Part shown: one piece after another, positions 3,619 to 40,058 of the stretch
How positions within the stretch are numbered: the first letter of the stretch is position 1
Layout: the number at the start of each line of letters is the position of its first letter
Source: Shigella phage VB_Ship_A7
Length of the DNA: 40,058 nt
Sequence record: MK685668
Reading direction: 5' to 3' (one strand)
Translations under genes and position numbers: made by a program
Notes under the pieces: generated by a model
What the model was told of the DNA's origin: nothing
Databases searched by the model: none
Seen by the model: only the letters and a program-made list of their open reading frames with translations

Positions 3619-3674
3619 TGTGTCCTCCTTATTGTTGAGACCATCCGTGGTCAAATTTATCAGCAGCAGCAGTG

Positions 3675-5540
3675 TTACTCCTTGTCTTTCTCCAACTCCT
3701 GAATGCGTGCATCTAGGTTCTTCACAAGCAGCATCAATCCACCGATAATCTGGTTAGGGTCTGGAGACTGCATCCCATCGCTCATAACGTCAACCGCTTC
3801 CGGCCACAGGCGGATTAAGTCCTGTGTGATGAATCCTGCACGAGAACGCTTACCGACTGTCTTAACGGAGCGCCCATGGTTATCAGTCCAAGTTTTGTCC
3901 TTGTACTTATAGGATACCGGAATGTAGGACCGGATGATGTTGAGCATATCGTCTGCATCGCGAACAACCTTGAGGTCCTCTTTCAGACGCCTATCAGACG
4001 AAAACCAGCGGAATCCTACTGCCGAACCATCAACGGTCCCTTCTATGTAGTCCCCACCACGGCCTGTGTAGAGTTGGACCCCTCCAGGCGGCTTGGCGAA
4101 CTGGTACTTATTGTGTAGGAAGTTATACAGGTCCCCACCATAATTGTCCCACAGTCCTCCACGTAAGTTCCCTTCATAGTTAAAATGACACCTACCCATT
4201 CCTGAATAAATGATCTGACCGATTATGTTGTTTCCGGCCTCAATCCTCGCACCATTTTCACCTTGGAAGTGTCTGGCATGGACCTCACCGTTACCAGTGA
4301 ACGTAACGCGTCCTAGCTCGGCAGTGTTCCCAGAGTTTACAGTACGAAAAACAAAACCACCGTCACCTAAACCCTTGTTGCATATGAAGTTCGCTTCGCC
4401 ACTGGATTGCTCGTTCCAAGCAAAATGTAAACCTTGTAGTCCGATGTGCATTGGGCTGTTCTTAATATGAAGTCGCCACATTGAGTTATAAGCATTCCCA
4501 TTAGACTGTTGCCGTAAGCCTCCATTGGCTACCACGATTCCATCGACCAAAATATCCTTCTGTGCCTGTATGTCTCCACCAACAACCAACAAATCACCGA
4601 TGCTCACCCCTTTATCAAATTGACCAGCACCAGTGGAGGTTATGCCACCTCCTACGATGTTTCCGGGCGTTGCAATATTACCTTTAAATGCTACGTGATT
4701 CCCATCAACCGAATCTAAGGCACCAGCAAAGTCATTCATGCTTTCTAACTTGTCAGCCTCTACAATTGCACGGTCGCGTGCCTCTTCTGCCTTGATTCGT
4801 GACTGACGAGCAGCCTCATTATGTGCAGCCGCCTGTCCCTCGGAGGTTAGTGCATCACTAGCAGAGGACGCAGCGTTACTCTCAGCGCTAATAGCACGGT
4901 CGCGTGCAGCCTCAGAACTGACAGCAGCACTTTCAGAGCGGATACCATATTGCTCAGAATGAACTGCGAAATTGTTAGCTTTAGTTGCTTCCTGTTGAGC
5001 ACGGTCAGCTTCACTCTTGGCACGGTCAGCTTCTGTACGTGCCTTAACGTAGGACTGATATGCCCCATCGTTCCACTGCTTGACTGTGCGCAAGTTTAGA
5101 GCATCATACTCACCAACCGGGTCAGCCACGTTAACAATACGGCGACCACGAGCATCTAAGTGCCCATCATTATTGACACCAATAGTATCAGCAGTAAGGT
5201 CGCGTGCTTCCTCGGCAACGTGAAGCGTTTGAATCTGTGAAATGTTCAGGTCATATGCGCGAAGGATTGAGCCATCAGCAAAGTCAACCAGACGGTCACT
5301 CGCAGAGGTAAAGCGGCGAATCTCAATCATCTGGTAACCATCAGCATCGGTCCACGCACGGGACGTTGTAATTTGAGTCTTAGTGGTAAAGCGATAGTCC
5401 TGATTAAGAACAAGTTCCTTACGGTCTTTACCAATTAGTGTTACTTTTACGAACTTACGTGCCAGATACTCAAAGGTAATTGTGAAGTCCACGGCACCAT
5501 TAAGTGGGTAAGTACGCACAGTGGAAATTTTGTTAGCCAT
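3675..5540 (-). CDS. 17: Tail fibre protein: conserved N-terminal tail-attachment domain, divergent distal region, C-terminal intramolecular-chaperone-like domain
   Basis: 621 aa; the first ~150 aa (MANKISTVRTYPLNG...GVNNDGHLDARGRRIVN) match the T7 gp17 N-terminus; the C-terminal ~107 aa begin SSDRRLKEDL, the signature of self-cleaving chaperone (peptidase S74-like) domains. Confidence 0.9.
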   Translation of the reverse strand: MANKISTVRTYPLNGAVDFTITFEYLARKFVKVTLIGKDRKELVLNQDYRFTTKTQITTSRAWTDADGYQMIEIRRFTSASDRLVDFADGSILRAYDLNISQIQTLHVAEEARDLTADTIGVNNDGHLDARGRRIVNVADPVGEYDALNLRTVKQWNDGAYQSYVKARTEADRAKSEADRAQQEATKANNFAVHSEQYGIRSESAAVSSEAARDRAISAESNAASSASDALTSEGQAAAHNEAARQSRIKAEEARDRAIVEADKLESMNDFAGALDSVDGNHVAFKGNIATPGNIVGGGITSTGAGQFDKGVSIGDLLVVGGDIQAQKDILVDGIVVANGGLRQQSNGNAYNSMWRLHIKNSPMHIGLQGLHFAWNEQSSGEANFICNKGLGDGGFVFRTVNSGNTAELGRVTFTGNGEVHARHFQGENGARIEAGNNIIGQIIYSGMGRCHFNYEGNLRGGLWDNYGGDLYNFLHNKYQFAKPPGGVQLYTGRGGDYIEGTVDGSAVGFRWFSSDRRLKEDLKVVRDADDMLNIIRSYIPVSYKYKDKTWTDNHGRSVKTVGKRSRAGFITQDLIRLWPEAVDVMSDGMQSPDPNQIIGGLMLLVKNLDARIQELEKDKE

Positions 5541-5611: not shown

Positions 5612-8600
5612 TTACTTCTTGTCAGACTTGAGGTGAACACCATTGGCCTCATAGAACTTGATGAGCATCTGTTGGGAGATTGGGTCGTTAGGAATCATCT
5701 CTCGGTGGGCGTTCATTAAGCCAGTCATCATCTCACGCTCGGTCACTTTGTTTGGAGCCGTAAGGACACCATAAGCATTTCGACCAGCAGCAAGGGTAGC
5801 ACCAGCGAACCCAAGAGCAGGAACCTGTTCACCAATAGCGCCCATAATGGAATCACCCATGTCACGAGAAGTTACCGCCTTGTTCCGTTCTTTCTTATCC
5901 TCTCCTTTAGGGAGAATCGTAGAGCGGACCATGAGACCTTGGTCGTAACCAGCAGCACCCATAGCGAAGTTTGCGATACTCAGAGGCGACCCAAGGTGTG
6001 AACTTCGGGAAGCCGCAGCGTAGGCAATCATCTTAGGGTCCAGAGCTTTCTTCAGGTAGTCCTTCTGTTGCTCTTTAGGAAGACCAGCAGCCTTCAAGTG
6101 GGCCTGTGCCACATAGTAGGAGCCAGCGATACCACCAGAGATTGCATAGGTCAGCGCCATATCCATAGCACGATGGTTCTTAAAGGCTTCGTGACCGGAG
6201 CGGATAAACTTAGAGTTCATCGACTTGATTACGAAAGACTTGAACTGAAGGACCAACTTAGCGGCAGCACCAAACGCATGGGAATCCTGAAGTGAAACCT
6301 TGTTAGGTCTCAGCATTGTCTCATCAGCAACCTTATCAGCCAGTCGCCACAGGTCCATAGCTCGCGGGTCATTAGCCAGCTTACGCTTGTCCTTGAAGGT
6401 GTACTTGCCGTCAGCACCTTGAGTGACGTTCTCACGGATGAGGTTCTGAATGCCTTCCCACTGTTCCTTTGAGATACTCGCAGATTTCAGCATGTCGCCT
6501 TTAATCCACTTGTTGGCACCCTTACCAGTAATGGCATGAGTTACCACATCTCCCATGACACCCTGACGGGCCATATCCAGAATGTAGTTGGAAGTACCGT
6601 TGAGGAACTTAGTGAACGGAGAGCGAGCAGCCAACTCTTGAGTGGTGTGCTTAACCGTACCAACAACCTTAGCGACAGCATCAGGTGTATCAGTAGACTC
6701 ACGGAGTCGCTGAATGATGTCTTGACGAGTCGGTCGGATTAACTGGTCGAACTCTTTACCAAACACCATAGAGTGGAGTTCTTTGAGTTCACTACCAGAG
6801 ACTGGCTTGTTACGGAACGCTAGGTCACGCAGAGCGGGAATGCCATGCAGCATCGCACGGGTGTTACCCTTCGACAATAGACCAGCGATTTCAGTTAGGT
6901 TCTGCAAGCCCATATATGCGTTCTTCGTAAAGAAGGACATATCGGATAGAGAGCGAACCATAGTGTCACCTACGGTATCCTGATTGCGTCGAGCACGACC
7001 AGTGACAATCTTAACGAAATCCTTAAGTGCTTCCACTTCACCTTTCATTGTGCCTTTACCTTCAGACTTCTTATCAAGAGCCATAATAGCGTCCTTGAGT
7101 TCAGCAGTAGTCTTGCCTGTGCCTCCCATGATAGCAATATCACCATCAACACGGCGGTCATATGCTGGCATCACATGCTTCATATCGAAGTCACGAAGGT
7201 CATTCACAGAGAACTGTTGACCATTCGGTAGAGTGATTGGCACGTCAGAATCAAACAGGTTACGGGCTTCAAGGAATGAGTTGTTCTCAATCCCAACGAG
7301 ACCCTCAATGTTATCGTCAATGACACTTGAAGAGTTGAACTCATCGGTCTTCGCAATACCATAAGCCTTGTCCATAGCGTACTTCTCAGCCATCTGACTA
7401 AGCATAGCCTCTTCGTCTACCTTTGGTTCCACCTTCTCGTCTGTGCCAAACTTCTGGCGCTCTGAAGGTTTAGCCGGGGTGGAGTCGTAGGCTTTACGGA
7501 ATGCTTGACCATCGGGGGTACGCACGCCACCAACTGATTCGTCTGTTCCACGGTACACGTAGTCAGGACTCTCAGTCTCAGCGATTCGGTACATCTCGGT
7601 AGCGATGCCTTTGCGGCGGTACTTCTCGGACACCTCAAGACTTGGATTATGCCACACGTCTCCCTCACGTTTAGCGAACTCTACGCTGCCAATGTGGTCT
7701 CCCTTTTTGGTGAACACATCCACCGCGAACTCAGCACCATCAGTTGTCTTAGCTGTGTAGTAGACAAAATCACCATCCACCTTGTAAGGAGTCTCACCAG
7801 AGTAGTCTCGCTTACCAGCGAAGTAATCACCTTGGAGTTCGCCATTAGAGACCTTAGTGATGCTAGTTGAGTTACCACCAGTCACCAGTGAGTCAGGCAT
7901 TACCGGAGCAGCCTCAGCACCTCTCAGGAAGTTCTCAGCTTCAGCTTGTGCACCTTTGGCAGTAGAGGCGGCTTCTTCAGCTTCGGCGGTGGCTTTGGTG
8001 ATTCTATCTTGGACCTTAGCAGCCTGTCCTTTCATGTGGTCGAGACGCTCTGTGTTAATACGGACGTGAGACTTCTGGGTCTCAATCATCTTCTTCCGGC
8101 TCTCAATCTTAACAGGAATGGTTTTGCTATTAGGTTTAGCAGCTAGTTTTTCTTCCAACTCCTTCAACTTAGCCTCATGCGAAGCCAGTCTGTCCTTGGA
8201 GTTCTGGAGTTTCCTTTCACGGTCCGCAACTCGCTTCTCAGCGTTGGTCAGAACGTCTTTTAGTTCCGCTACCTTATCACTTGCCCGTGTAGCTGCATCG
8301 TCCAGTTTCATCCGGTAACTGGCTGTGTCTACAGACTCTTGGCTTCTGAGGAAGTTCTCAGTGTCAGCCGCAAGTTTGGCATCAGCTTCAGCTTTGGAGA
8401 AAACGTCACTGTTAACCTGTTTAAGGTATTCATCAATACGGGCCTTGACTTCAGGACGCGCATGATATGATGCCATCAGGCTTGCAGCAACTGCTTCCTG
8501 TAAACCATCAGTGCCCCCAAGAGCCTGTGAGTACACCTGCTTGGCTTCCCGCGAGTACACATGAGGAACGTAAGTCCCTTTGTGACGACTGTTAGGGAAG

Positions 8601-10546
8601 ATAGAGGTTGCCTTGTTACCGAACATCGACGGGTTCTCCATCATCTCACGCTTGAGGTCATAATGTTCCTTCACGATGTCCATAACCTTACGCTCTTCCT
8701 TGGTCAAGTTAGCTTGAAGTTCAGGTCTCTCGATAGCCTCACTGATACGACGATAGATTGTTTGACGGGCACCTTGAGCACCACTCTTGAACATACCCAC
8801 AGACCACTCAGGGTCAGCCATTGCTTCCTTCATTGCACTATAGAGGTTATTGTAGGTTCGATGGTTGAGACTACGCAGTCGCTCTATGATGTCCGATGTA
8901 GTAGAACCAAACTTACCATGTGAGCCTGACTCCATACCTGTAGGTGAGCGCACTAAGTCCTTTGCGAGACCACGGATTTCAGAGTGTTCTGAACGTAGGG
9001 TTTTCAAGCCGATTTCACTTAGTCCACGCATAGGCAATCCCCAAGCAGCACGTTCAGGGTCCACTTCAGCGAACTCTCTGGCAGTCATTGGGTTAGCCAA
9101 GTTGGTATCACTAATAATGGAACCATCACGCAGCACTACCGCACCCGGTTCAGTTTCGAGAGGTGCATACTCAACGCCGTTGTGCTGTGAGAACACTCGG
9201 TCTTCACTAGGAGGCATACGACTTGCATCATATCCACCAGTGTTACGGGCAGTCTCACGAGCCTCGAAGCGCATCTGTGTAGCAGAAAACGGGTTCTCAA
9301 TCTGTTCAGTACCAGACTTACGGAGACCTGCAGCAACACCATCAGCAACCGCAGTGAGTCCACCAGCAAGCAGCATACCAGCAAGAGCAGCTTCCGCATA
9401 GTGAGCATCGCCACCAGCAACGGATGTACGCAGACCCTCAGAGGCAACGTTAAGTGCACCAGCTTGAGCACCCACCATCAACGCCTTGTTCACCAGCTTG
9501 AATCCCTTGGCTGTAGTCCCTGCGAGTGGGATGTAGGTCAACGGGTCCACACCAGCACCAATCAGGCCAGCAGACAGCTTGGCACCAAGTCCAGCTTCAG
9601 CAGCCTTAGCGTCAGCCTCGTAGTTCTCGTTAGCCAGCTTGATTAGCTCATCAAGGTTCTCAGCGGAACCACCAAGCACAACGTTAATGTACGCAGGGTT
9701 TTTCACTTCTTTGCGAATCTTGTCGAGTTCTTCAGGCGACCAAATGTGGCTATTAAACCGTGTCGGTTGAAGTACATCAGTGAGCACATCAAAACCATTG
9801 TCACGCTTACTAGCACGGAAGGCAACACCCAAGGTTGAGTTGGAGAGTTCTGCTTCAGCAGCACTACCGAATCCGAAGAAGGTTGAACGCTCATTGGCTT
9901 CGTCAAGAGTTGTTCCTTTTGCTTCCCAATAGTCTTTACCGAATGGCTGATTGGGAGCGGTCTGTTCTTTACCTTGAAAGGACATTGAGTGAGACTCAGG
10001 GAGTTCTGTAGTTACCTTTCCTTTCTCCCCGATACCACTCATAGCAGCGTCGAACGAAATCCCTTTACCCTTTGGGGTGATACCACCGAAGGACTCAATG
10101 TCGCCACTCTTCGGAGACTTAGCGACATCCAGAAGTGAGCGCAAATAGTTACGCCCTTCGTCACCAATACCAGCAAAGTTACCGGAGTCGTAGGCTTCCA
10201 ATTGAGGCTTACCGTTTCGGCCTTCGCCTTGGTTGTACGCAAGGGCAGCTTTCAGTTCATCCCCATTGTACTTCTTAACGAGGTCTGCAAGGTAACGAGC
10301 ACCAGCATCGATAGACTTAGCCGGGTCGTTGAAGTCCTCATCAGACTGTAGGCCGTAAGCCTGACCAGTTGCCTTAGTGAACTGCATGACACCCCGTGGC
10401 CCTGTTGGTGATTGGGCCGTAGGTTTGAATCGGGACTCTACCCAACCGACCTTCCGAAGAAGGCCGTAGGAGACTCCATGTGTGTCAGCAGCTTGTTGAA
10501 ATAACGCATCATATTCATGCGGTTCGTTCGGGTTATACTTATCCAC
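5612..10546 (-). CDS. 16: Internal virion (core) protein D with N-terminal lytic transglycosylase domain; enlarged (1644 aa)
   Basis: GTG start at 10546 with AGGAGG 6 nt upstream; N-terminus MDKYNPNEPHEYDALFQQAADTHGVSYGLLRKVGWVESRF...GVMQFTKATG is the T7 gp16 SLT-type region; about 326 aa longer than T7 gp16 (1318 aa). Confidence 0.95.
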   Translation of the reverse strand: MDKYNPNEPHEYDALFQQAADTHGVSYGLLRKVGWVESRFKPTAQSPTGPRGVMQFTKATGQAYGLQSDEDFNDPAKSIDAGARYLADLVKKYNGDELKAALAYNQGEGRNGKPQLEAYDSGNFAGIGDEGRNYLRSLLDVAKSPKSGDIESFGGITPKGKGISFDAAMSGIGEKGKVTTELPESHSMSFQGKEQTAPNQPFGKDYWEAKGTTLDEANERSTFFGFGSAAEAELSNSTLGVAFRASKRDNGFDVLTDVLQPTRFNSHIWSPEELDKIRKEVKNPAYINVVLGGSAENLDELIKLANENYEADAKAAEAGLGAKLSAGLIGAGVDPLTYIPLAGTTAKGFKLVNKALMVGAQAGALNVASEGLRTSVAGGDAHYAEAALAGMLLAGGLTAVADGVAAGLRKSGTEQIENPFSATQMRFEARETARNTGGYDASRMPPSEDRVFSQHNGVEYAPLETEPGAVVLRDGSIISDTNLANPMTAREFAEVDPERAAWGLPMRGLSEIGLKTLRSEHSEIRGLAKDLVRSPTGMESGSHGKFGSTTSDIIERLRSLNHRTYNNLYSAMKEAMADPEWSVGMFKSGAQGARQTIYRRISEAIERPELQANLTKEERKVMDIVKEHYDLKREMMENPSMFGNKATSIFPNSRHKGTYVPHVYSREAKQVYSQALGGTDGLQEAVAASLMASYHARPEVKARIDEYLKQVNSDVFSKAEADAKLAADTENFLRSQESVDTASYRMKLDDAATRASDKVAELKDVLTNAEKRVADRERKLQNSKDRLASHEAKLKELEEKLAAKPNSKTIPVKIESRKKMIETQKSHVRINTERLDHMKGQAAKVQDRITKATAEAEEAASTAKGAQAEAENFLRGAEAAPVMPDSLVTGGNSTSITKVSNGELQGDYFAGKRDYSGETPYKVDGDFVYYTAKTTDGAEFAVDVFTKKGDHIGSVEFAKREGDVWHNPSLEVSEKYRRKGIATEMYRIAETESPDYVYRGTDESVGGVRTPDGQAFRKAYDSTPAKPSERQKFGTDEKVEPKVDEEAMLSQMAEKYAMDKAYGIAKTDEFNSSSVIDDNIEGLVGIENNSFLEARNLFDSDVPITLPNGQQFSVNDLRDFDMKHVMPAYDRRVDGDIAIMGGTGKTTAELKDAIMALDKKSEGKGTMKGEVEALKDFVKIVTGRARRNQDTVGDTMVRSLSDMSFFTKNAYMGLQNLTEIAGLLSKGNTRAMLHGIPALRDLAFRNKPVSGSELKELHSMVFGKEFDQLIRPTRQDIIQRLRESTDTPDAVAKVVGTVKHTTQELAARSPFTKFLNGTSNYILDMARQGVMGDVVTHAITGKGANKWIKGDMLKSASISKEQWEGIQNLIRENVTQGADGKYTFKDKRKLANDPRAMDLWRLADKVADETMLRPNKVSLQDSHAFGAAAKLVLQFKSFVIKSMNSKFIRSGHEAFKNHRAMDMALTYAISGGIAGSYYVAQAHLKAAGLPKEQQKDYLKKALDPKMIAYAAASRSSHLGSPLSIANFAMGAAGYDQGLMVRSTILPKGEDKKERNKAVTSRDMGDSIMGAIGEQVPALGFAGATLAAGRNAYGVLTAPNKVTEREMMTGLMNAHREMIPNDPISQQMLIKFYEANGVHLKSDKK

Positions 10547-20915: not shown

Positions 20916-21218
20916 TTAGATATTCAGACCACCGCCAGAACTGCGAGCGACACTCAGGGATTTCTTACCACCCGAACGTGCTTTCTTCTTGCCAGATTCG
21001 GTTTGTGCCTCATCATCAGTATCCACTTCGTCTTTACTTGGCGGCTCGATAATCTGTGCGGCAACAGGAGCAGCCACTGGAGCAGCTTGTTCCACAACCT
21101 TAACATCTGGTTCACCGCCTCCAGCTAACGCACCCACAGTCCCCTTAACAGCCTTCTCTACTGGCTTAGTGATTTTACGAACAGTCTTCTTAACTACCTT
21201 CTTAATCTTCTTACCCAT
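20916..21218 (-). CDS. 7.3: Lys-rich small virion/tail protein (T7 gp7.3-like)
   Basis: 100 aa; N-terminus MGKKIKKVVKK, C-terminus KKSLSVARSSGGGLNI, matching recalled T7 gp7.3 (99 aa). Sits directly upstream of gene 8, so there is no gene 7.7 equivalent. Confidence 0.7.
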   Translation of the reverse strand: MGKKIKKVVKKTVRKITKPVEKAVKGTVGALAGGGEPDVKVVEQAAPVAAPVAAQIIEPPSKDEVDTDDEAQTESGKKKARSGGKKSLSVARSSGGGLNI

Positions 21219-21220
21219 GA

Positions 21221-21607
21221 TTATACCCTCTTGAATACGTTTCGAATTGACCCATCGTGTTCATGCACACAACGGGAGACCCACTGGCAACCTCTACGAG
21301 TCGCCTCAGCTAACACCCAGCGCCAGACCCAAGGTGCATACCCAGAGCGTGGCTTAAGGACGATATTGGTTATGTCCAATATGTCACCCTTATGGTGTAT
21401 GTCGTTGCTGATACAGAGCGCTACATAAGCCACAGGATAACCATTGGCGTTCTTAAAGTAGAACTCTTCGTACCCAGCGTCATCCATAAGCCCATCCACG
21501 TAGTCAGCGTACTCGCTTAACGTAGTGAACCCTTCTGGCAACCCTAAGTGCGCCACAGTCCAGACAATAGCTGCCGCACGTTCTGTGCACTTATGTGCTG
21601 TTATCAT
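21221..21607 (-). CDS. Hypothetical protein at the T7 gene 7 position
   Basis: 128-aa ORF between the 6.7 and 7.3 homologs (T7 gp7 is 133 aa); assigned by position only. Confidence 0.5.
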   Translation of the reverse strand: MITAHKCTERAAAIVWTVAHLGLPEGFTTLSEYADYVDGLMDDAGYEEFYFKNANGYPVAYVALCISNDIHHKGDILDITNIVLKPRSGYAPWVWRWVLAEATRRGCQWVSRCVHEHDGSIRNVFKRV

Positions 21608-21625
21608 TTACCGAACTCCTCCTAG

Positions 21626-36553: not shown

Positions 36554-37651
36554 TCAGCCCATCAGTTGAGCGTCAAGTACCTTGTCGATATTCAGAGGGA
36601 GACCCGCTTGGATTGCTAGGCGGTCCCCTAGTTGCCACTTGAGGCCTTTCACTTGTTCAATCTTGCGTGCCGCTGTGGGACCATTGCGGAACCAGAAGTT
36701 ATCCCATGCAGACCCCATGAGCATTTCGGCGCGGCGTTCGTTTCTATCAATGGCCCTGCGTTCGATGCGACCTTTAACAAACTGTGCCATACCTTTGACG
36801 TGTAACTTACGGTTGCGCTTACGGTTACGCTTGCGGCGTTTCATGTTGGCTTTCTTGTTCATCCAGTAAGTGCCATTAGGGTCACGCTTGGCCTTTCGGT
36901 TGCGACAGCGTTCAATGATGCGCTCGTTAGCTATCGCCTCTACCTCAGCAATCAGTGCTTCAGGGTCCAGAGGAAAACCGTCCTCACGTTCACGGTCATG
37001 TGAGAAGCTGACTGGGTCAGTGATGTACGGAACATCGTTATCGTCGAACATAATGTTCCCGCTGTGCATGTCGAAGGATGCAATCCCTTTGAAGAATTCA
37101 CGAATCATCTTGCACGTTTCGATGAACTCGTAGTCACCCGGTGCAAAGTCACTTGCGTCATGGCAATCCGACTCCACAAAGTAACGTGCGAGGTCAGCGT
37201 ATACCTCATGGTCGTAATTATCGCGGTCACAACTGTTCAAGTGGTCAAGTACAACCGTGTAGCAACCTGCATGACGTGCTACGTGATAGACGTTCGGGAT
37301 ACCCGCTCGGCCTTGGTGCATCCTACAGAATGCAGTGTATGCTGCGCCTGAATCCTCTTTCTTAAAGCCAACCTTGATGACTCGACCCGGTAACAGTTCA
37401 TGCGAGTAGGCCGCGCTGAAGTGACCATTGCCTAACATGCGGAATCCTGCATCACGCATCAGTGCGCCCAAGGTGTTCCACCAGTCCTGATACTCCAAGC
37501 CGTTCGAGCCATCTGTATCGTTTCCGTCACTAGTCTCACCGTTCACGATGTCAGCAGCCAGTTCGACCAAAAGAGGCTGGCGCTTGTCCAGTTCGCTAAT
37601 CGGAAGAGACTTGATGATTGCCAGACGTGCCTGAATGTCGGTATAGTTCAT
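36554..37651 (-). CDS. 0.7: Ser/Thr protein kinase with host transcription shutoff domain (T7 gp0.7 homolog)
   Basis: 365 aa; MLGNGHFSAAYSH...RVIKVGFKKEDSGAAYTAFCRM...FDMHSGNIMF...VPYITDPVSFS matches recalled T7 gp0.7 (359 aa); basic C-terminal half. Confidence 0.95.
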   Translation of the reverse strand: MNYTDIQARLAIIKSLPISELDKRQPLLVELAADIVNGETSDGNDTDGSNGLEYQDWWNTLGALMRDAGFRMLGNGHFSAAYSHELLPGRVIKVGFKKEDSGAAYTAFCRMHQGRAGIPNVYHVARHAGCYTVVLDHLNSCDRDNYDHEVYADLARYFVESDCHDASDFAPGDYEFIETCKMIREFFKGIASFDMHSGNIMFDDNDVPYITDPVSFSHDREREDGFPLDPEALIAEVEAIANERIIERCRNRKAKRDPNGTYWMNKKANMKRRKRNRKRNRKLHVKGMAQFVKGRIERRAIDRNERRAEMLMGSAWDNFWFRNGPTAARKIEQVKGLKWQLGDRLAIQAGLPLNIDKVLDAQLMG

Positions 37652-37672
37652 TAGATTGTGTCCTATTTAAGT

Positions 37673-37891
37673 TTAAGAAAGAGCGTTCAATGTATTGGTT
37701 AATGCTTGTTCGAGTGCTGCGAGCTTCTGTGCTTTGACCTTGGCCTTTCGTCTATGCCATGCAGCCCGCTCCTGTTCCTTGCGTCGTTCGAGGTTGTTCT
37801 CACGCCAAGTTCTCACGATACGCCTGTTTGCTGCATTGAGTGTACCATTAGACCTATAGCCTTTCTTTAAGTCATCAGTGCGTTCTGTCAT
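37673..37891 (-). CDS. Hypothetical basic 72-aa early protein (possible 0.6B-type extension or separate gene)
   Basis: ATG at 37891 without a clear SD; overlaps the 3' end of the upstream small ORF by 17 nt in another frame; R/K-rich. Confidence 0.35.
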   Translation of the reverse strand: MTERTDDLKKGYRSNGTLNAANRRIVRTWRENNLERRKEQERAAWHRRKAKVKAQKLAALEQALTNTLNALS

Positions 37892-38084
37892 AGCTGGAAC
37901 CTATCTTGTTAATCTTACGGTTGGTGCGCAGTTCACGCTTAAGGCGTTCGATTCGTTGTTTCATTGCGAAGCCATCAGGTGTGCAAACTGTAGCGCCGTT
38001 ATTGGTGTGGATAGGCATGACGTAGTGTTTCAGCATGATCGTAATCCCGTGCGTTGTTTTAAAGTGATAATCATGAAAGGCCAC
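37875..38084 (-). CDS. Small early protein (T7/T3 gene 0.6 position)
   Basis: ORF-track start is GTG inside the RNase III hairpin; an in-frame ATG at 38036 would give 53 aa (MLKHYVMPIHT...). Start is uncertain. Confidence 0.45.
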   Translation of the reverse strand: MAFHDYHFKTTHGITIMLKHYVMPIHTNNGATVCTPDGFAMKQRIERLKRELRTNRKINKIGSSYDRTH

Positions 38085-38108
38085 TCATATTGAGCGACCT
38101 TGAGTTTA
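38064..38108 (-). promoter_or_regulatory. RNase III-type processing hairpin
   Basis: AAAGGCCACTCATATTGAGCGACCTTGAGTTTA core. Confidence 0.6.
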
Positions 38109-38112
38109 TCGC

Positions 38113-38571
38113 TTATCGTACTTGCCAGCGGCGACCGAACTCATCAATCGTGAAGCAACCTTGAAGCGGTACGCCTTTAGGCACTTCTTGGAAACTACCC
38201 GGCAAACGTTCAGCCTTATAGCCGTCAATGCCTTGAGCGTACACTAAACCAGCCGTGTGAGTTTGTGACTTATAGACCAGTACGCAATCTTGTTCAAACT
38301 CATTACATGCCAGACGTGCGACCGCTATTGCTTGAGATTTGTTGGCACAGCGTACACGAACAGTCAGTTCCTCAGTCGGTGCACTTGCGATAGCCTCCCG
38401 ATAACAACCAGTCAAGTCTGTAGACTCAACGCTACCGTATTCAAGCGGTGCATTACGCAGTGAGTTAACCATGTGACGATGACGACTCATATTTACTTCG
38501 TCGCAGAGGTTAGAGCGGAACGCTGATACCAGTACATAGAATACGTTTGCAGGTTCGTTAGTGTAAATCAT
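38113..38571 (-). CDS. S-adenosyl-L-methionine hydrolase/lyase-like protein (T3 gene 0.3-type SAMase)
   Basis: 152 aa, the length of T3 SAMase; the sequence matches my recollection of T3 gp0.3, which I cannot verify without a search. Confidence 0.6.
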   Translation of the reverse strand: MIYTNEPANVFYVLVSAFRSNLCDEVNMSRHRHMVNSLRNAPLEYGSVESTDLTGCYREAIASAPTEELTVRVRCANKSQAIAVARLACNEFEQDCVLVYKSQTHTAGLVYAQGIDGYKAERLPGSFQEVPKGVPLQGCFTIDEFGRRWQVR

Positions 38572-38595
38572 GATAGTGCCTCATTATGTGTGTTA

Positions 38596-38640
38596 GTGAT
38601 AATCATAAAGGCCACTCGCTGGGAGCGACCTTGAGTCTAT
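38596..38640 (-). promoter_or_regulatory. RNase III-type processing hairpin
   Basis: AAAGGCCACTCGCTGGGAGCGACCTTGAGTCTA; 10-bp stem with loop CCAGC on the minus strand. Confidence 0.6.
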
Positions 38641-38984
38641 CACTCAGCAGACTCTTCGACTTCCTCAAGATACTCGTTCAGTAAGTCTTCTGCGTCCTCC
38701 CAAAGGTCAATCGTTAATTGCTCATAGATACGCGCTTGCAGGATACGGATTACGTCCTTGGTGTCCGGCATCAGACCAGAGTCCTCGAACTCAAGGTCAA
38801 TGCCCTCGCTAGCCATTACGCTGAAAACGTCGCTGTAATAGTGCGGAACAGCATTATCAGCCGCCATATGCACTGCATCGTGCAGGTCATCAGTGTCACG
38901 GATGTCATCATAACGGATGTTTTCTTTCAGCATTTCGTAAGCGTGGTCGAAAACGTTGTTGTAAGTCATGTTAGACATAGCCAT
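38640..38984 (-). CDS. ocr: Ocr, DNA-mimic anti-restriction protein (overcome classical restriction)
   Basis: 114 aa; [37 protein letters not shown]...[18 protein letters not shown] is near-identical to recalled T7 gp0.3; very acidic. Confidence 0.95.
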
Positions 38985-39010
38985 CTTGTGTTACCTCATG
39001 CGATTGTTAG

Positions 39011-39068
39011 TTAGTGATTATCAAAAAGGCTCCTCGTATAGTGCTTTCGAGTCACCTTGAGTTAATCA
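39011..39068 (-). promoter_or_regulatory. RNase III-type processing hairpin (R0.3 position)
   Basis: Contains ...AAAAAGGCTCC...GTCACCTTGAGTTAA, a more divergent copy of the shared core; immediately upstream of ocr. Confidence 0.5.
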
Positions 39069-39252
39069 CTATCGGCCTCATCACTGTTTAAACGCTAGTG
39101 CGTTCACGTCATCCCCGTAGTTCTTGACTACCTGTCTCGCAGTAAGGGAATTACACGACCAAATTGTTAAAGAACTTTAAGTGCAGGTTTGTTAGCACCG
39201 AGTCACTTTCAGTGTGTGACCTCACAAGAACGTTATGTAGTGCATGTCGTAC

Positions 39253-39282
39253 ATCTTACATCTTATCTTTACTGCTTGTCAA
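39253..39282 (-). promoter_or_regulatory. Candidate host sigma70 early promoter (third of three)
   Basis: Minus strand TTGACA (39282-39277), 18-bp spacer, TAAGAT (39258-39253). Confidence 0.5.
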
Positions 39283-39345
39283 CACCTTTCTTACCATGAC
39301 ACCTCATGTTGTTTCAGAGGGTAGTCGTTGTGTTGACGTTGTGTA

Positions 39346-39373
39346 GCTTACTGCTTTGTTACCGTTGAGTCAA
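39346..39373 (-). promoter_or_regulatory. Candidate host sigma70 early promoter (second of three)
   Basis: Minus strand TTGACT (39373-39368), 16-bp spacer, TAAGCT (39351-39346). Confidence 0.5.
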
Positions 39374-39479: not shown

Positions 39480-39508
39480 ATAGTCTCATAAGCCATTATC
39501 AATGTCAA
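39480..39508 (-). promoter_or_regulatory. Candidate host sigma70 early promoter (first, A1-like)
   Basis: Minus strand TTGACA (39508-39503), 17-bp spacer, GACTAT (39485-39480); T7 A1 has TTGACT-17-GATACT. Confidence 0.5.
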
Positions 39509-39513
39509 CACTT

Positions 39514-39577
39514 AATCTTAAAGAATCTTAAAGCCTCTCTTTAAGTGGTCTTATAGTCTCTTTAAGTGGTCTTATAG
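39514..39577. repeat. Tandem direct repeats: 10 bp x2 (AATCTTAAAG) and 21 bp x2 (TCTCTTTAAGTGGTCTTATAG)
   Basis: Exact tandem copies at 39514-39533 and 39536-39577, between the phiOL-type promoter and the first sigma70 promoter. Confidence 0.85.
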
Positions 39578-39773: not shown

Positions 39774-39857
39774 CATAAGGCACTGACTGAAGGTTAACAT
39801 AAGGATAGGCAGCCATAAGGTGATACTCTAAGGGTCACATAAGGTGATGACATAAGG
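39774..39857. repeat. Array of 5 CATAAGG heptamers (CCTTATG on the coding strand) adjacent to the terminal repeat
   Basis: Copies at 39774, 39798, 39814, 39838 and 39851; occupies the position of the T7 CCTAAAG-type short repeats next to the terminal repeat. Confidence 0.8.
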
Positions 39858-39881
39858 AGATACTCAATGGTCACTTACAGA

Positions 39882-40058
39882 TAGAGACACAGAGACACTA
39901 AGTTATCCACAGAGTTACCCACAGTTTCACCTAAAGTTATCCACAGAGCCTCTAACCTAGAGTTATCCACAAGTTACTCACAGAGTTATCCATAGGTTAT
40001 CCCCAAGTTATCCACAGAGTTACCCACAGGGGGAAACCACTTTGTATTAACTATGAGA
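39882..40058. repeat. Direct terminal repeat, right copy
   Basis: Identical to 1-177. Confidence 0.9.

Follow-up and report, generated by a model that had tools for sequence, protein, structure and literature searches.

Introduction

The early region of Shigella phage vB_ShiP-A7 raises the question of how a T7-like phage came to have two anti-defence genes, one of the T7 type and one of the T3 type, next to each other, and whether both of them matter. The vB_ShiP-A7 genome is T7-like and is read on the minus strand with its left end at position 40058. The window, by which we mean the whole stretch of 40,058 bp that was analysed (sequence record MK685668), has a terminal direct repeat of 177 bp that is exact when its ends are compared. 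The genome paper (Front Microbiol 2021, PMC8427288) gives the same length, 40,058 bp, and places the 177-bp repeats at 1-177 and 39,882-40,058. Its ORF table gives ORF43 at 38640-38984 on the minus strand as a 114-aa 'predicted antirestriction protein' with a pI of 3.71, and ORF42 and ORF43 are annotated there with SAM-degrading and antirestriction functions. Both functions are put in one sentence of that paper, where the name Ocr is absent and the co-occurrence passes uncommented. The SAM lyase encoded in the window is 100% identical to QBZ69020.1 of vB_ShiP-A7, and the GenBank/RefSeq annotation is found under QBZ69020.1 and YP_009821835.1. The gene pair is thus already known, both genes being annotated in the literature and in GenBank/RefSeq. 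What goes beyond the published annotation is the order with ocr first, the apparent insertion of ocr inside an RNase III site and the apparent loss of gene 0.4. The explanation that we propose, and consider highly probable as a whole, is that these are two stacked anti-defence genes, transcribed early and separated by RNase III sites, and that the pair was built by recombination between such sites.

The ocr gene

The original prediction, which was made from the letters of the DNA, placed two anti-restriction genes side by side in the early region, and open reading frames do lie on the minus strand at exactly 38640..38984 and 38113..38571. The first of these, at 38640..38984, was thought to encode a near-identical copy of the Ocr DNA mimic, and this holds. 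In a profile search the ORF scored 211.7 bits against Pfam PF08684 'ocr' (E 1.9e-63, cutoff 25), with residues 3-103 spanning profile positions 1-101 of 101, and it also matches PHROG 2568 'ocr-like anti-restriction'. When aligned with T7 Ocr (PDB 1s7z), 108 of the 112 aligned residues are identical; the mismatches are at residues 38, 51, 53 and 112, and otherwise the two proteins differ at the extreme C-terminus only. The protein has 30 Asp and Glu residues against 6 Lys and Arg residues in 114 aa, the corresponding numbers in T7 Ocr being 34 and 6. The vB_ShiP-A7 gene is therefore taken as a T7-type gene 0.3 whose product is a predicted DNA-mimic inhibitor of type I restriction-modification (R-M) and BREX. 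It resembles T7 ocr not only in the acidic composition of its product but also in being the first early gene, in its ribosome-binding site and start context, and in having an RNase III site upstream.

The two ocr genes differ at their 3' ends and in what follows. T7 Ocr is 117 aa long and ends in the acidic tail YEEDEE, whereas vB_ShiP-A7 Ocr is 114 aa long and has SAE instead; sequence alignment derives these last three codons, which are followed by the stop, from the 3' end of gene 0.4. In T7 gene 0.4 comes after ocr, whereas in vB_ShiP-A7 gene 0.4 is absent and the SAM lyase gene comes after ocr. Roberts et al. (PMC3439906) located the charge block that is crucial for T7 Ocr activity at aa 59-91, and they found that the C-terminal truncations Ocr99 and Ocr109, from which the last 17 or 7 residues had been removed, still block restriction. 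Since the block from aa 59 to 91 is identical in the vB_ShiP-A7 protein and since Ocr99 and Ocr109 are still active, the altered tail is unlikely to matter for anti-restriction.

In a large protein collection the closest Ocr, among the 120 closest Ocr proteins, is that of phage PHB19 (98%), which lies in a plain T7-type context of ocr-0.4-0.5-0.6-0.7. The fused EESAE tail was present in none of the seven sequences retrieved from these 120, which included the four closest 114-aa matches; these four differ in the tail or internally.

The SAM lyase gene

The second gene (38113..38571, minus strand) encodes a protein of 152 aa that had been read as the SAM-degrading enzyme of T3 gene 0.3. This reading agrees with a profile search, in which the protein scored 139.9 bits against Pfam PF23780 'S-AdoMet_lyase' (E 6.4e-41, cutoff 28) and residues 13-151 spanned profile positions 1-132 of 133. 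The similarity search that the original prediction had called for aligned the whole of the protein with the T3 SAM lyase (PDB 7ock/8bb1), residues 1-152 on 1-152, at an E value of 7.6e-90 and with 134 of 152 residues identical (88%). None of the 18 substitutions is at a tested functional position. The catalytic and SAM-positioning residues E68, Q94 and D95 are all kept at the same positions, as is E67. In the T3 enzyme E68Q and Q94A each lower activity five-fold and together abolish catalysis, while D95A lowered its anti-BREX activity (bioRxiv 10.1101/2023.02.27.530186). In the same study T4, Q103, T104 and H105 make up the conserved interface with MetK, the SAM synthase; T4A weakens the complex there, and Q103 and T104 likewise have an effect on the binding of MetK. 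All four residues are kept in vB_ShiP-A7. In addition, an in-frame internal Met28 (ATG at 38490..38488) is the counterpart of the T3 0.3B start, 0.3B being annotated in the T3 record. Close homology thus supports the 152-aa protein as a T3-type SAM-degrading enzyme (SAMase), and the T3 enzyme is now classed as a lyase that converts SAM to methylthioadenosine (MTA) and homoserine lactone (PMC7877911).

The T3 SAM lyase has the same length as the vB_ShiP-A7 protein and its gene likewise lies between RNase III sites of the R0.3 and R0.5 kind. It is the first early gene in T3, whereas in vB_ShiP-A7 it is the second. A protein of a related phage, JSS1_004, was also considered as a candidate SAM lyase and was ruled out, because its paper shows that it is a gp0.7-type kinase.

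Putative promoters and early operon

Three putative host (sigma-70) early promoters lie on the minus strand upstream of ocr. The A1-like site (39480..39508; TTGACA, 17 nt, GACTAT) aligns with the annotated T3 A1 and with T7 A1. The A2-like site (39345..39373; TTGACT, 17 nt, TAAGCT) is the positional equivalent of T3/T7 A2, with which its alignment is loose, and the A3-like site (39253..39282; TTGACA, 18 nt, TAAGAT) is the positional equivalent of A3. The A3-like site is also the top match to the sigma-70 consensus in the region (10/12). Since a scan with the sigma-70 consensus found no more sites in the region than in shuffled sequences, the assignment of these promoters rests on position and homology. 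If they function like their T3 and T7 counterparts, host RNA polymerase would transcribe the early operon from them during genome entry. Downstream of the SAM lyase gene come a 0.6-type small gene pair, a gp0.7-type kinase gene and then the RNA polymerase gene.

There are 5 EcoKI sites, 7 EcoBI sites and 33 copies of GGTAAG, the E. coli BREX site, in the genome. Counted from the left end, the EcoKI and EcoBI sites all come after 4.3 kb, behind both anti-restriction genes. Entry of the T7 genome is slow and is pulled by transcription. With entry of this type, proteins encoded at 1.1-1.9 kb could therefore be produced ahead of the entry of most targets.

RNase III-type hairpins

The original prediction had the two genes separated by an RNase III-type hairpin, and the 68-nt spacer between ocr and the SAM lyase gene indeed folds as one. 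This middle hairpin (38594..38646, minus strand; -22.1 kcal/mol, z -2.22) contains T7-R0.5-like sequence and its fold is moderately better than that of shuffled sequences, 6 of 200 shuffles being as good (z -2.2). There are two more such hairpins on the same strand. One is upstream of ocr at the R0.3 position (39012..39072; -25.6 kcal/mol, z -3.27) and the other is downstream of the SAM lyase gene at the position of T3 R0.5 (38058..38114; -21.4 kcal/mol, z -3.27). The three form a family of direct repeats, and they align with the annotated R0.3 and R0.5 of T3, to which the middle one is clearly related, as well as with their T7 equivalents. Across 10 sites the upper stem is conserved, and two of its pairs show compensatory change. 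No Rfam family was found for the hairpins at permissive thresholds. The T7 record V01146 lists no RNase III features in its feature table, and R0.5 of T7 is here placed immediately after gene 0.4. The matches of the two proteins and of the middle hairpin are too good to be due to chance. Homology together with the fold supports the identity of the three hairpins as RNase III-type sites, and RNase III would then cut the polycistronic RNA at all three, giving separate ocr and SAM lyase messages.

Two of the three hairpins are hybrids, as was seen when they were aligned with the R sites of T3, T7, P483 and P694. The upstream hairpin consists of a P483-type 5' flank and arm, an interior of its own, and a T7-R0.3-like 3' arm that continues into the ocr leader. 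The middle hairpin has a T7-R0.5-like 5' part joined to the 3' arm and leader of the P483-type site that precedes the SAM lyase gene. Over about 46 nt it matches the sequence that comes directly after gene 0.4 in T7, the mismatches being one loop base and the last base.

Origin of the gene arrangement

The closest genome found is that of Escherichia phage P483, a Berlinvirus, which is 93.9% identical over 91% of a 25-kb query. Its SAM lyase is 97.4% identical to that of vB_ShiP-A7, and the leader and downstream hairpin of the gene are the same, but P483 has no ocr. The two phages also differ in their 0.6/0.65-type genes and in the end of the tail fibre, and gp16 is shorter in P483. BLAST comparisons with P483, P694, P151 and AV103 and a three-way junction alignment delimit an ocr cassette of 433 bp (38622..39054, minus strand) that is absent from P483, which has about 15 bp there. 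Both junctions of the cassette are inside hairpin arms. The P483-type site that precedes the SAM lyase gene is in two pieces: its 5' flank and arm, GATAGTGATTAACTCAAGG, now stand before ocr and its 3' arm and leader, CTTTATGATTATCACTAACACACATAATGAGGCACTATC, now stand after ocr. Thus the cassette lies in what is a single R0.3 hairpin in P483, and two hybrid hairpins result. The 5' half of the middle one is nearly identical to T7 R0.5, the site that comes after gene 0.4 in T7 and in P694.

The end of ocr shows a fusion. It reads GAAGAGTCTGCTGAGTGA, and the resulting Ocr tail, EESAE followed by the stop, is what is obtained when an ocr of the P694 type is fused at GAGTCTG to the 3' end of gene 0.4. 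One copy of GAGTCTG is near the end of P694-type ocr and the other is within the final codons of gene 0.4 (LESAE and the stop). The simplest reading, and the most likely one, is that the conserved arms of RNase III hairpins recombined by homology and that a microhomology deletion also took place. An ocr(-0.4) cassette from a T7/P694-like phage would have entered a P483-like genome within the R0.3 hairpin in front of its SAM lyase gene, and gene 0.4 would have been lost by deletion between the two GAGTCTG copies. Such a deletion would explain the length of 114 aa, the SAE tail and the missing gene 0.4 at the same time. This history is reconstructed from present-day relatives that are 90-95% identical and are not the true parents.

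We put forward, tentatively, a more general idea, which we think somewhat more apt to fail than to hold. RNase III hairpins may serve as portable homology boxes for the insertion, swapping and stacking of ocr, ocr-0.4 and SAM lyase cassettes, and vB_ShiP-A7 would then have been caught in the act. If this is the case, the ocr cassette, by landing in one hairpin, would have regenerated two working hybrid sites, and synthesis of the DNA mimic would precede that of the SAM lyase. Early anti-defence genes would then be readily reshuffled in order and number, and the two layouts described below might differ in the host defences that they beat.

Other phages with both genes

According to the BASEL survey, the gp0.3 locus of all Studiervirinae in the collection is occupied either by an inhibitor of the Ocr type or by a SAM hydrolase, and a full-text search of the literature found no paper that discusses carriage of both genes. 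The original prediction had likewise described T7 and T3 as having one or the other protein in the same slot and vB_ShiP-A7 as having both. Their co-presence is as described, but it is not unique to this phage. Both genes occur in at least seven further T7-like genomes or contigs, namely, the Escherichia phages P694, P151, AV103 and Ebrios, the IMG/VR genome UViG_2595698912 (L014), and two Logan contigs from SRR20950777 and SRR20950919. As in vB_ShiP-A7, a SAM lyase gene and an Ocr-family gene are in the early region with RNase III-type hairpins between them. The proteins of Escherichia phage P694 are 96% identical to the Ocr and SAM lyase of vB_ShiP-A7, while Ebrios and the IMG/VR genome have a longer Ocr-like protein of about 173 aa. 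All of the other dual carriers found have the SAM lyase gene ahead of ocr, and most of them keep gene 0.4 after ocr, whereas vB_ShiP-A7 is the only dual carrier found with ocr first. Searches with megablast and blastn recovered no other ocr-first pair or junction among 50,697 phage records, and in IMG/VR and JGI metagenome contigs no ocr-first order was recovered by either of two different degenerate junction patterns. Neither protein had an exact match in a contig index. A control pattern with the SAM lyase gene first recovered P694 with its 101-nt gap, and because of this the negative results with the ocr-first patterns are reliable as far as sequences fitting the degenerate motifs are concerned.

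An order that was found nowhere else in these searches could be an artefact of assembling short reads through repeated hairpins. The genome was assembled with SOAPdenovo and GapCloser from 2 x 150 bp Illumina reads (PMC8427288), and both junctions are in sequences that are repeated three times in the locus and are common to T7-like phages. The stretches shared at the junctions are, however, only about 16-24 bp long, which is far below the read length, and the phage DNA was purified ahead of sequencing and the genome ends were confirmed by direct sequencing (PMC8427288). Moreover, the interior of the upstream hairpin and the fusion of ocr to the end of gene 0.4 are unique and are not copies of a co-assembled relative, and dual carriage itself is well documented. 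An artefact is thus very improbable, and we take the ocr-first order as real.

Function of the gene pair

If both genes are expressed early, as we propose, the two products would act in different ways. Ocr would act as a highly acidic dimer that mimics bent DNA. The SAM lyase would convert SAM to methylthioadenosine and homoserine lactone and would also bind and inhibit MetK, and the loss of SAM would starve SAM-dependent defences, namely, type I R-M and BREX, of their cofactor. It had been predicted that the pair provides two independent mechanisms against restriction. The enzyme would also inhibit MetK, and since its targets, type I R-M and BREX, overlap those of Ocr, the mechanisms would be independent but the targets are not. 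That the phage benefits from carrying both Ocr and the SAM lyase is assumed here, their known targets being overlapping ones.

This same overlap between the known targets of Ocr and those of the T3 SAM lyase, in type I R-M and in BREX, is what would be seen if only one of the genes mattered and the other were a redundant passenger of a recent recombination, of no use to the phage or already in the course of being lost, in which case the pair would be a mosaic accident and not a two-layer counter-defence. The locus does bear fresh scars of rearrangement, which are the deletion of gene 0.4 and the hybrid hairpins, and most Studiervirinae in the BASEL survey have one gene or the other. However, both ORFs are intact, each has a GAGG ribosome-binding site 8-9 nt 5' of its start, and all tested functional residues are kept in both products. 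The pair is also retained in the at least seven other genomes or contigs, which come from different places and have two different layouts, and this recurrence argues for selection. We therefore regard it as quite improbable that one of the two genes is only a passenger.

Another explanation that must be weighed is that the SAM lyase is kept mainly for a role other than anti-restriction, with Ocr alone handling type I R-M and BREX. Ocr alone suffices for T7, and the T3 SAM lyase binds MetK while MetE and Rho co-purify with it (bioRxiv 10.1101/2023.02.27.530186). Relatives of phage SAM lyases degrade the SAM-AMP signals of type III CRISPR (PMC12255297). The sole demonstrated phenotypes of the T3 enzyme are, however, anti-restriction and anti-BREX activity, and nothing within the window points to another target, and so this explanation is unlikely. 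Candidates for such other roles are host takeover through the loss of SAM, affecting methylation and polyamine synthesis or acting by MetK inhibition, and action on a defence that is insensitive to Ocr. We thus favour the proposal that Ocr and the SAM lyase of vB_ShiP-A7 are stacked anti-defence proteins.

Significance

The practical gain from these results is modest because both proteins are well understood and both genes had been annotated before. Reviews and surveys describe the gene 0.3 slot as having either Ocr or a SAM-degrading enzyme, and stacking of both is seen in vB_ShiP-A7 and in no fewer than seven further genomes or contigs. Since vB_ShiP-A7 has been isolated and propagated, it offers a natural system in which redundancy, additivity or complementarity of the two proteins could be studied against variants of type I R-M and BREX. 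It is also suited to the question of what gene order means during transcription-coupled genome entry and to the question of how phage therapy candidates may widen their host range.

Genome ends and differences from phage P483

The window is the complete linear genome of vB_ShiP-A7, presented in reverse-complement orientation, and it carries an exact 177-bp terminal direct repeat at 1-177 and 39882-40058. Its length, repeats, and ORF table coincide with those published for this phage. Near the left genome end, which corresponds to position 40058, there are short repeat arrays at 39536-39577 and 39814-40053. These arrays include an exact tandem 21-mer in two copies, TCTCTTTAAGTGGTCTTATAG, three 20-mers of the CATAAGG type, and several units of the AAGTTATCCACAGAG type that extend into the terminal repeat. 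The arrays are presumably signals for packaging or for the concatemer junction, like those of T7.

Besides the ocr cassette and the insert in gp16 that is described below, three stretches lack a close match in P483, the Escherichia phage (Berlinvirus) with the closest genome found, namely, the distal region of the tail fibre gene (3653-5099), a 0.5-kb segment near 21.1-21.6 kb (21120-21617), and the 0.6/0.65-type early genes (37672-38058). All three are ordinary mosaicism. The 0.6-type segment is matched at 87% by AV103, another T7-like phage that carries both the SAM lyase and ocr.

An insertion in gp16

The internal virion protein gp16 (minus strand, ORF 10546..5612) has 1644 aa in vB_ShiP-A7 whereas that of P483 has 1490 aa, because the former contains an in-frame insert of about 154 aa at about aa 869-1023 (7478-7941, minus strand). 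Within this insert there is an RRKGIA motif, and aa 939-992 match the GNAT acetyltransferase family of Pfam below threshold (E 0.0012), the score of 19.6 bits falling short of the cutoff of 20.7 bits. The insert is shared with only 12 phage records, in every case within gp16, and the hosts of these phages belong to six genera: Escherichia, Yersinia, Klebsiella, Shigella, Pectobacterium, and Enterobacter. The insert may be an enzyme domain that is ejected into the host.

Early genes around the anti-restriction pair

In T7, in P694 (a T7-like phage that also carries both the SAM lyase and ocr), and in most of the Ocr-carrying relatives, gene 0.4 is the next gene after ocr, but in vB_ShiP-A7 it has been deleted. 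T7 gp0.4 inhibits FtsZ. At 38640-38660 on the minus strand, the final three gp0.4 codons are fused onto the Ocr C-terminus at a GAGTCTG microhomology.

Between ORF41 and ORF42 of the published numbering (PMC8427288) there is a gene 0.6-like ORF of 53 aa (37875-38036, minus strand; PHROG 8393, E 4e-33) that was omitted from the published ORF table. It overlaps ORF41, which encodes 72 aa (37673-37891, minus strand), and a single PHROG profile of 111 positions is split over the two, the 53-aa ORF covering positions 1-53 and ORF41 positions 53-102. This layout is similar to that of 0.6A and 0.6B in T7, whose annotation includes a joined product.

At 36554-37651, the minus strand encodes a serine/threonine kinase of the gp0.7 type that has a shut-off region at its C-terminus (PHROG 2828, E 1.5e-179). 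Its presumed homologue in the related Salmonella phage JSS1, JSS1_004, reportedly inactivates Dnd and CRISPR, among other defences, through phosphorylation. Since the presumed homologue has this reported activity, the early operon of vB_ShiP-A7 may, by analogy, hold three anti-defence functions.
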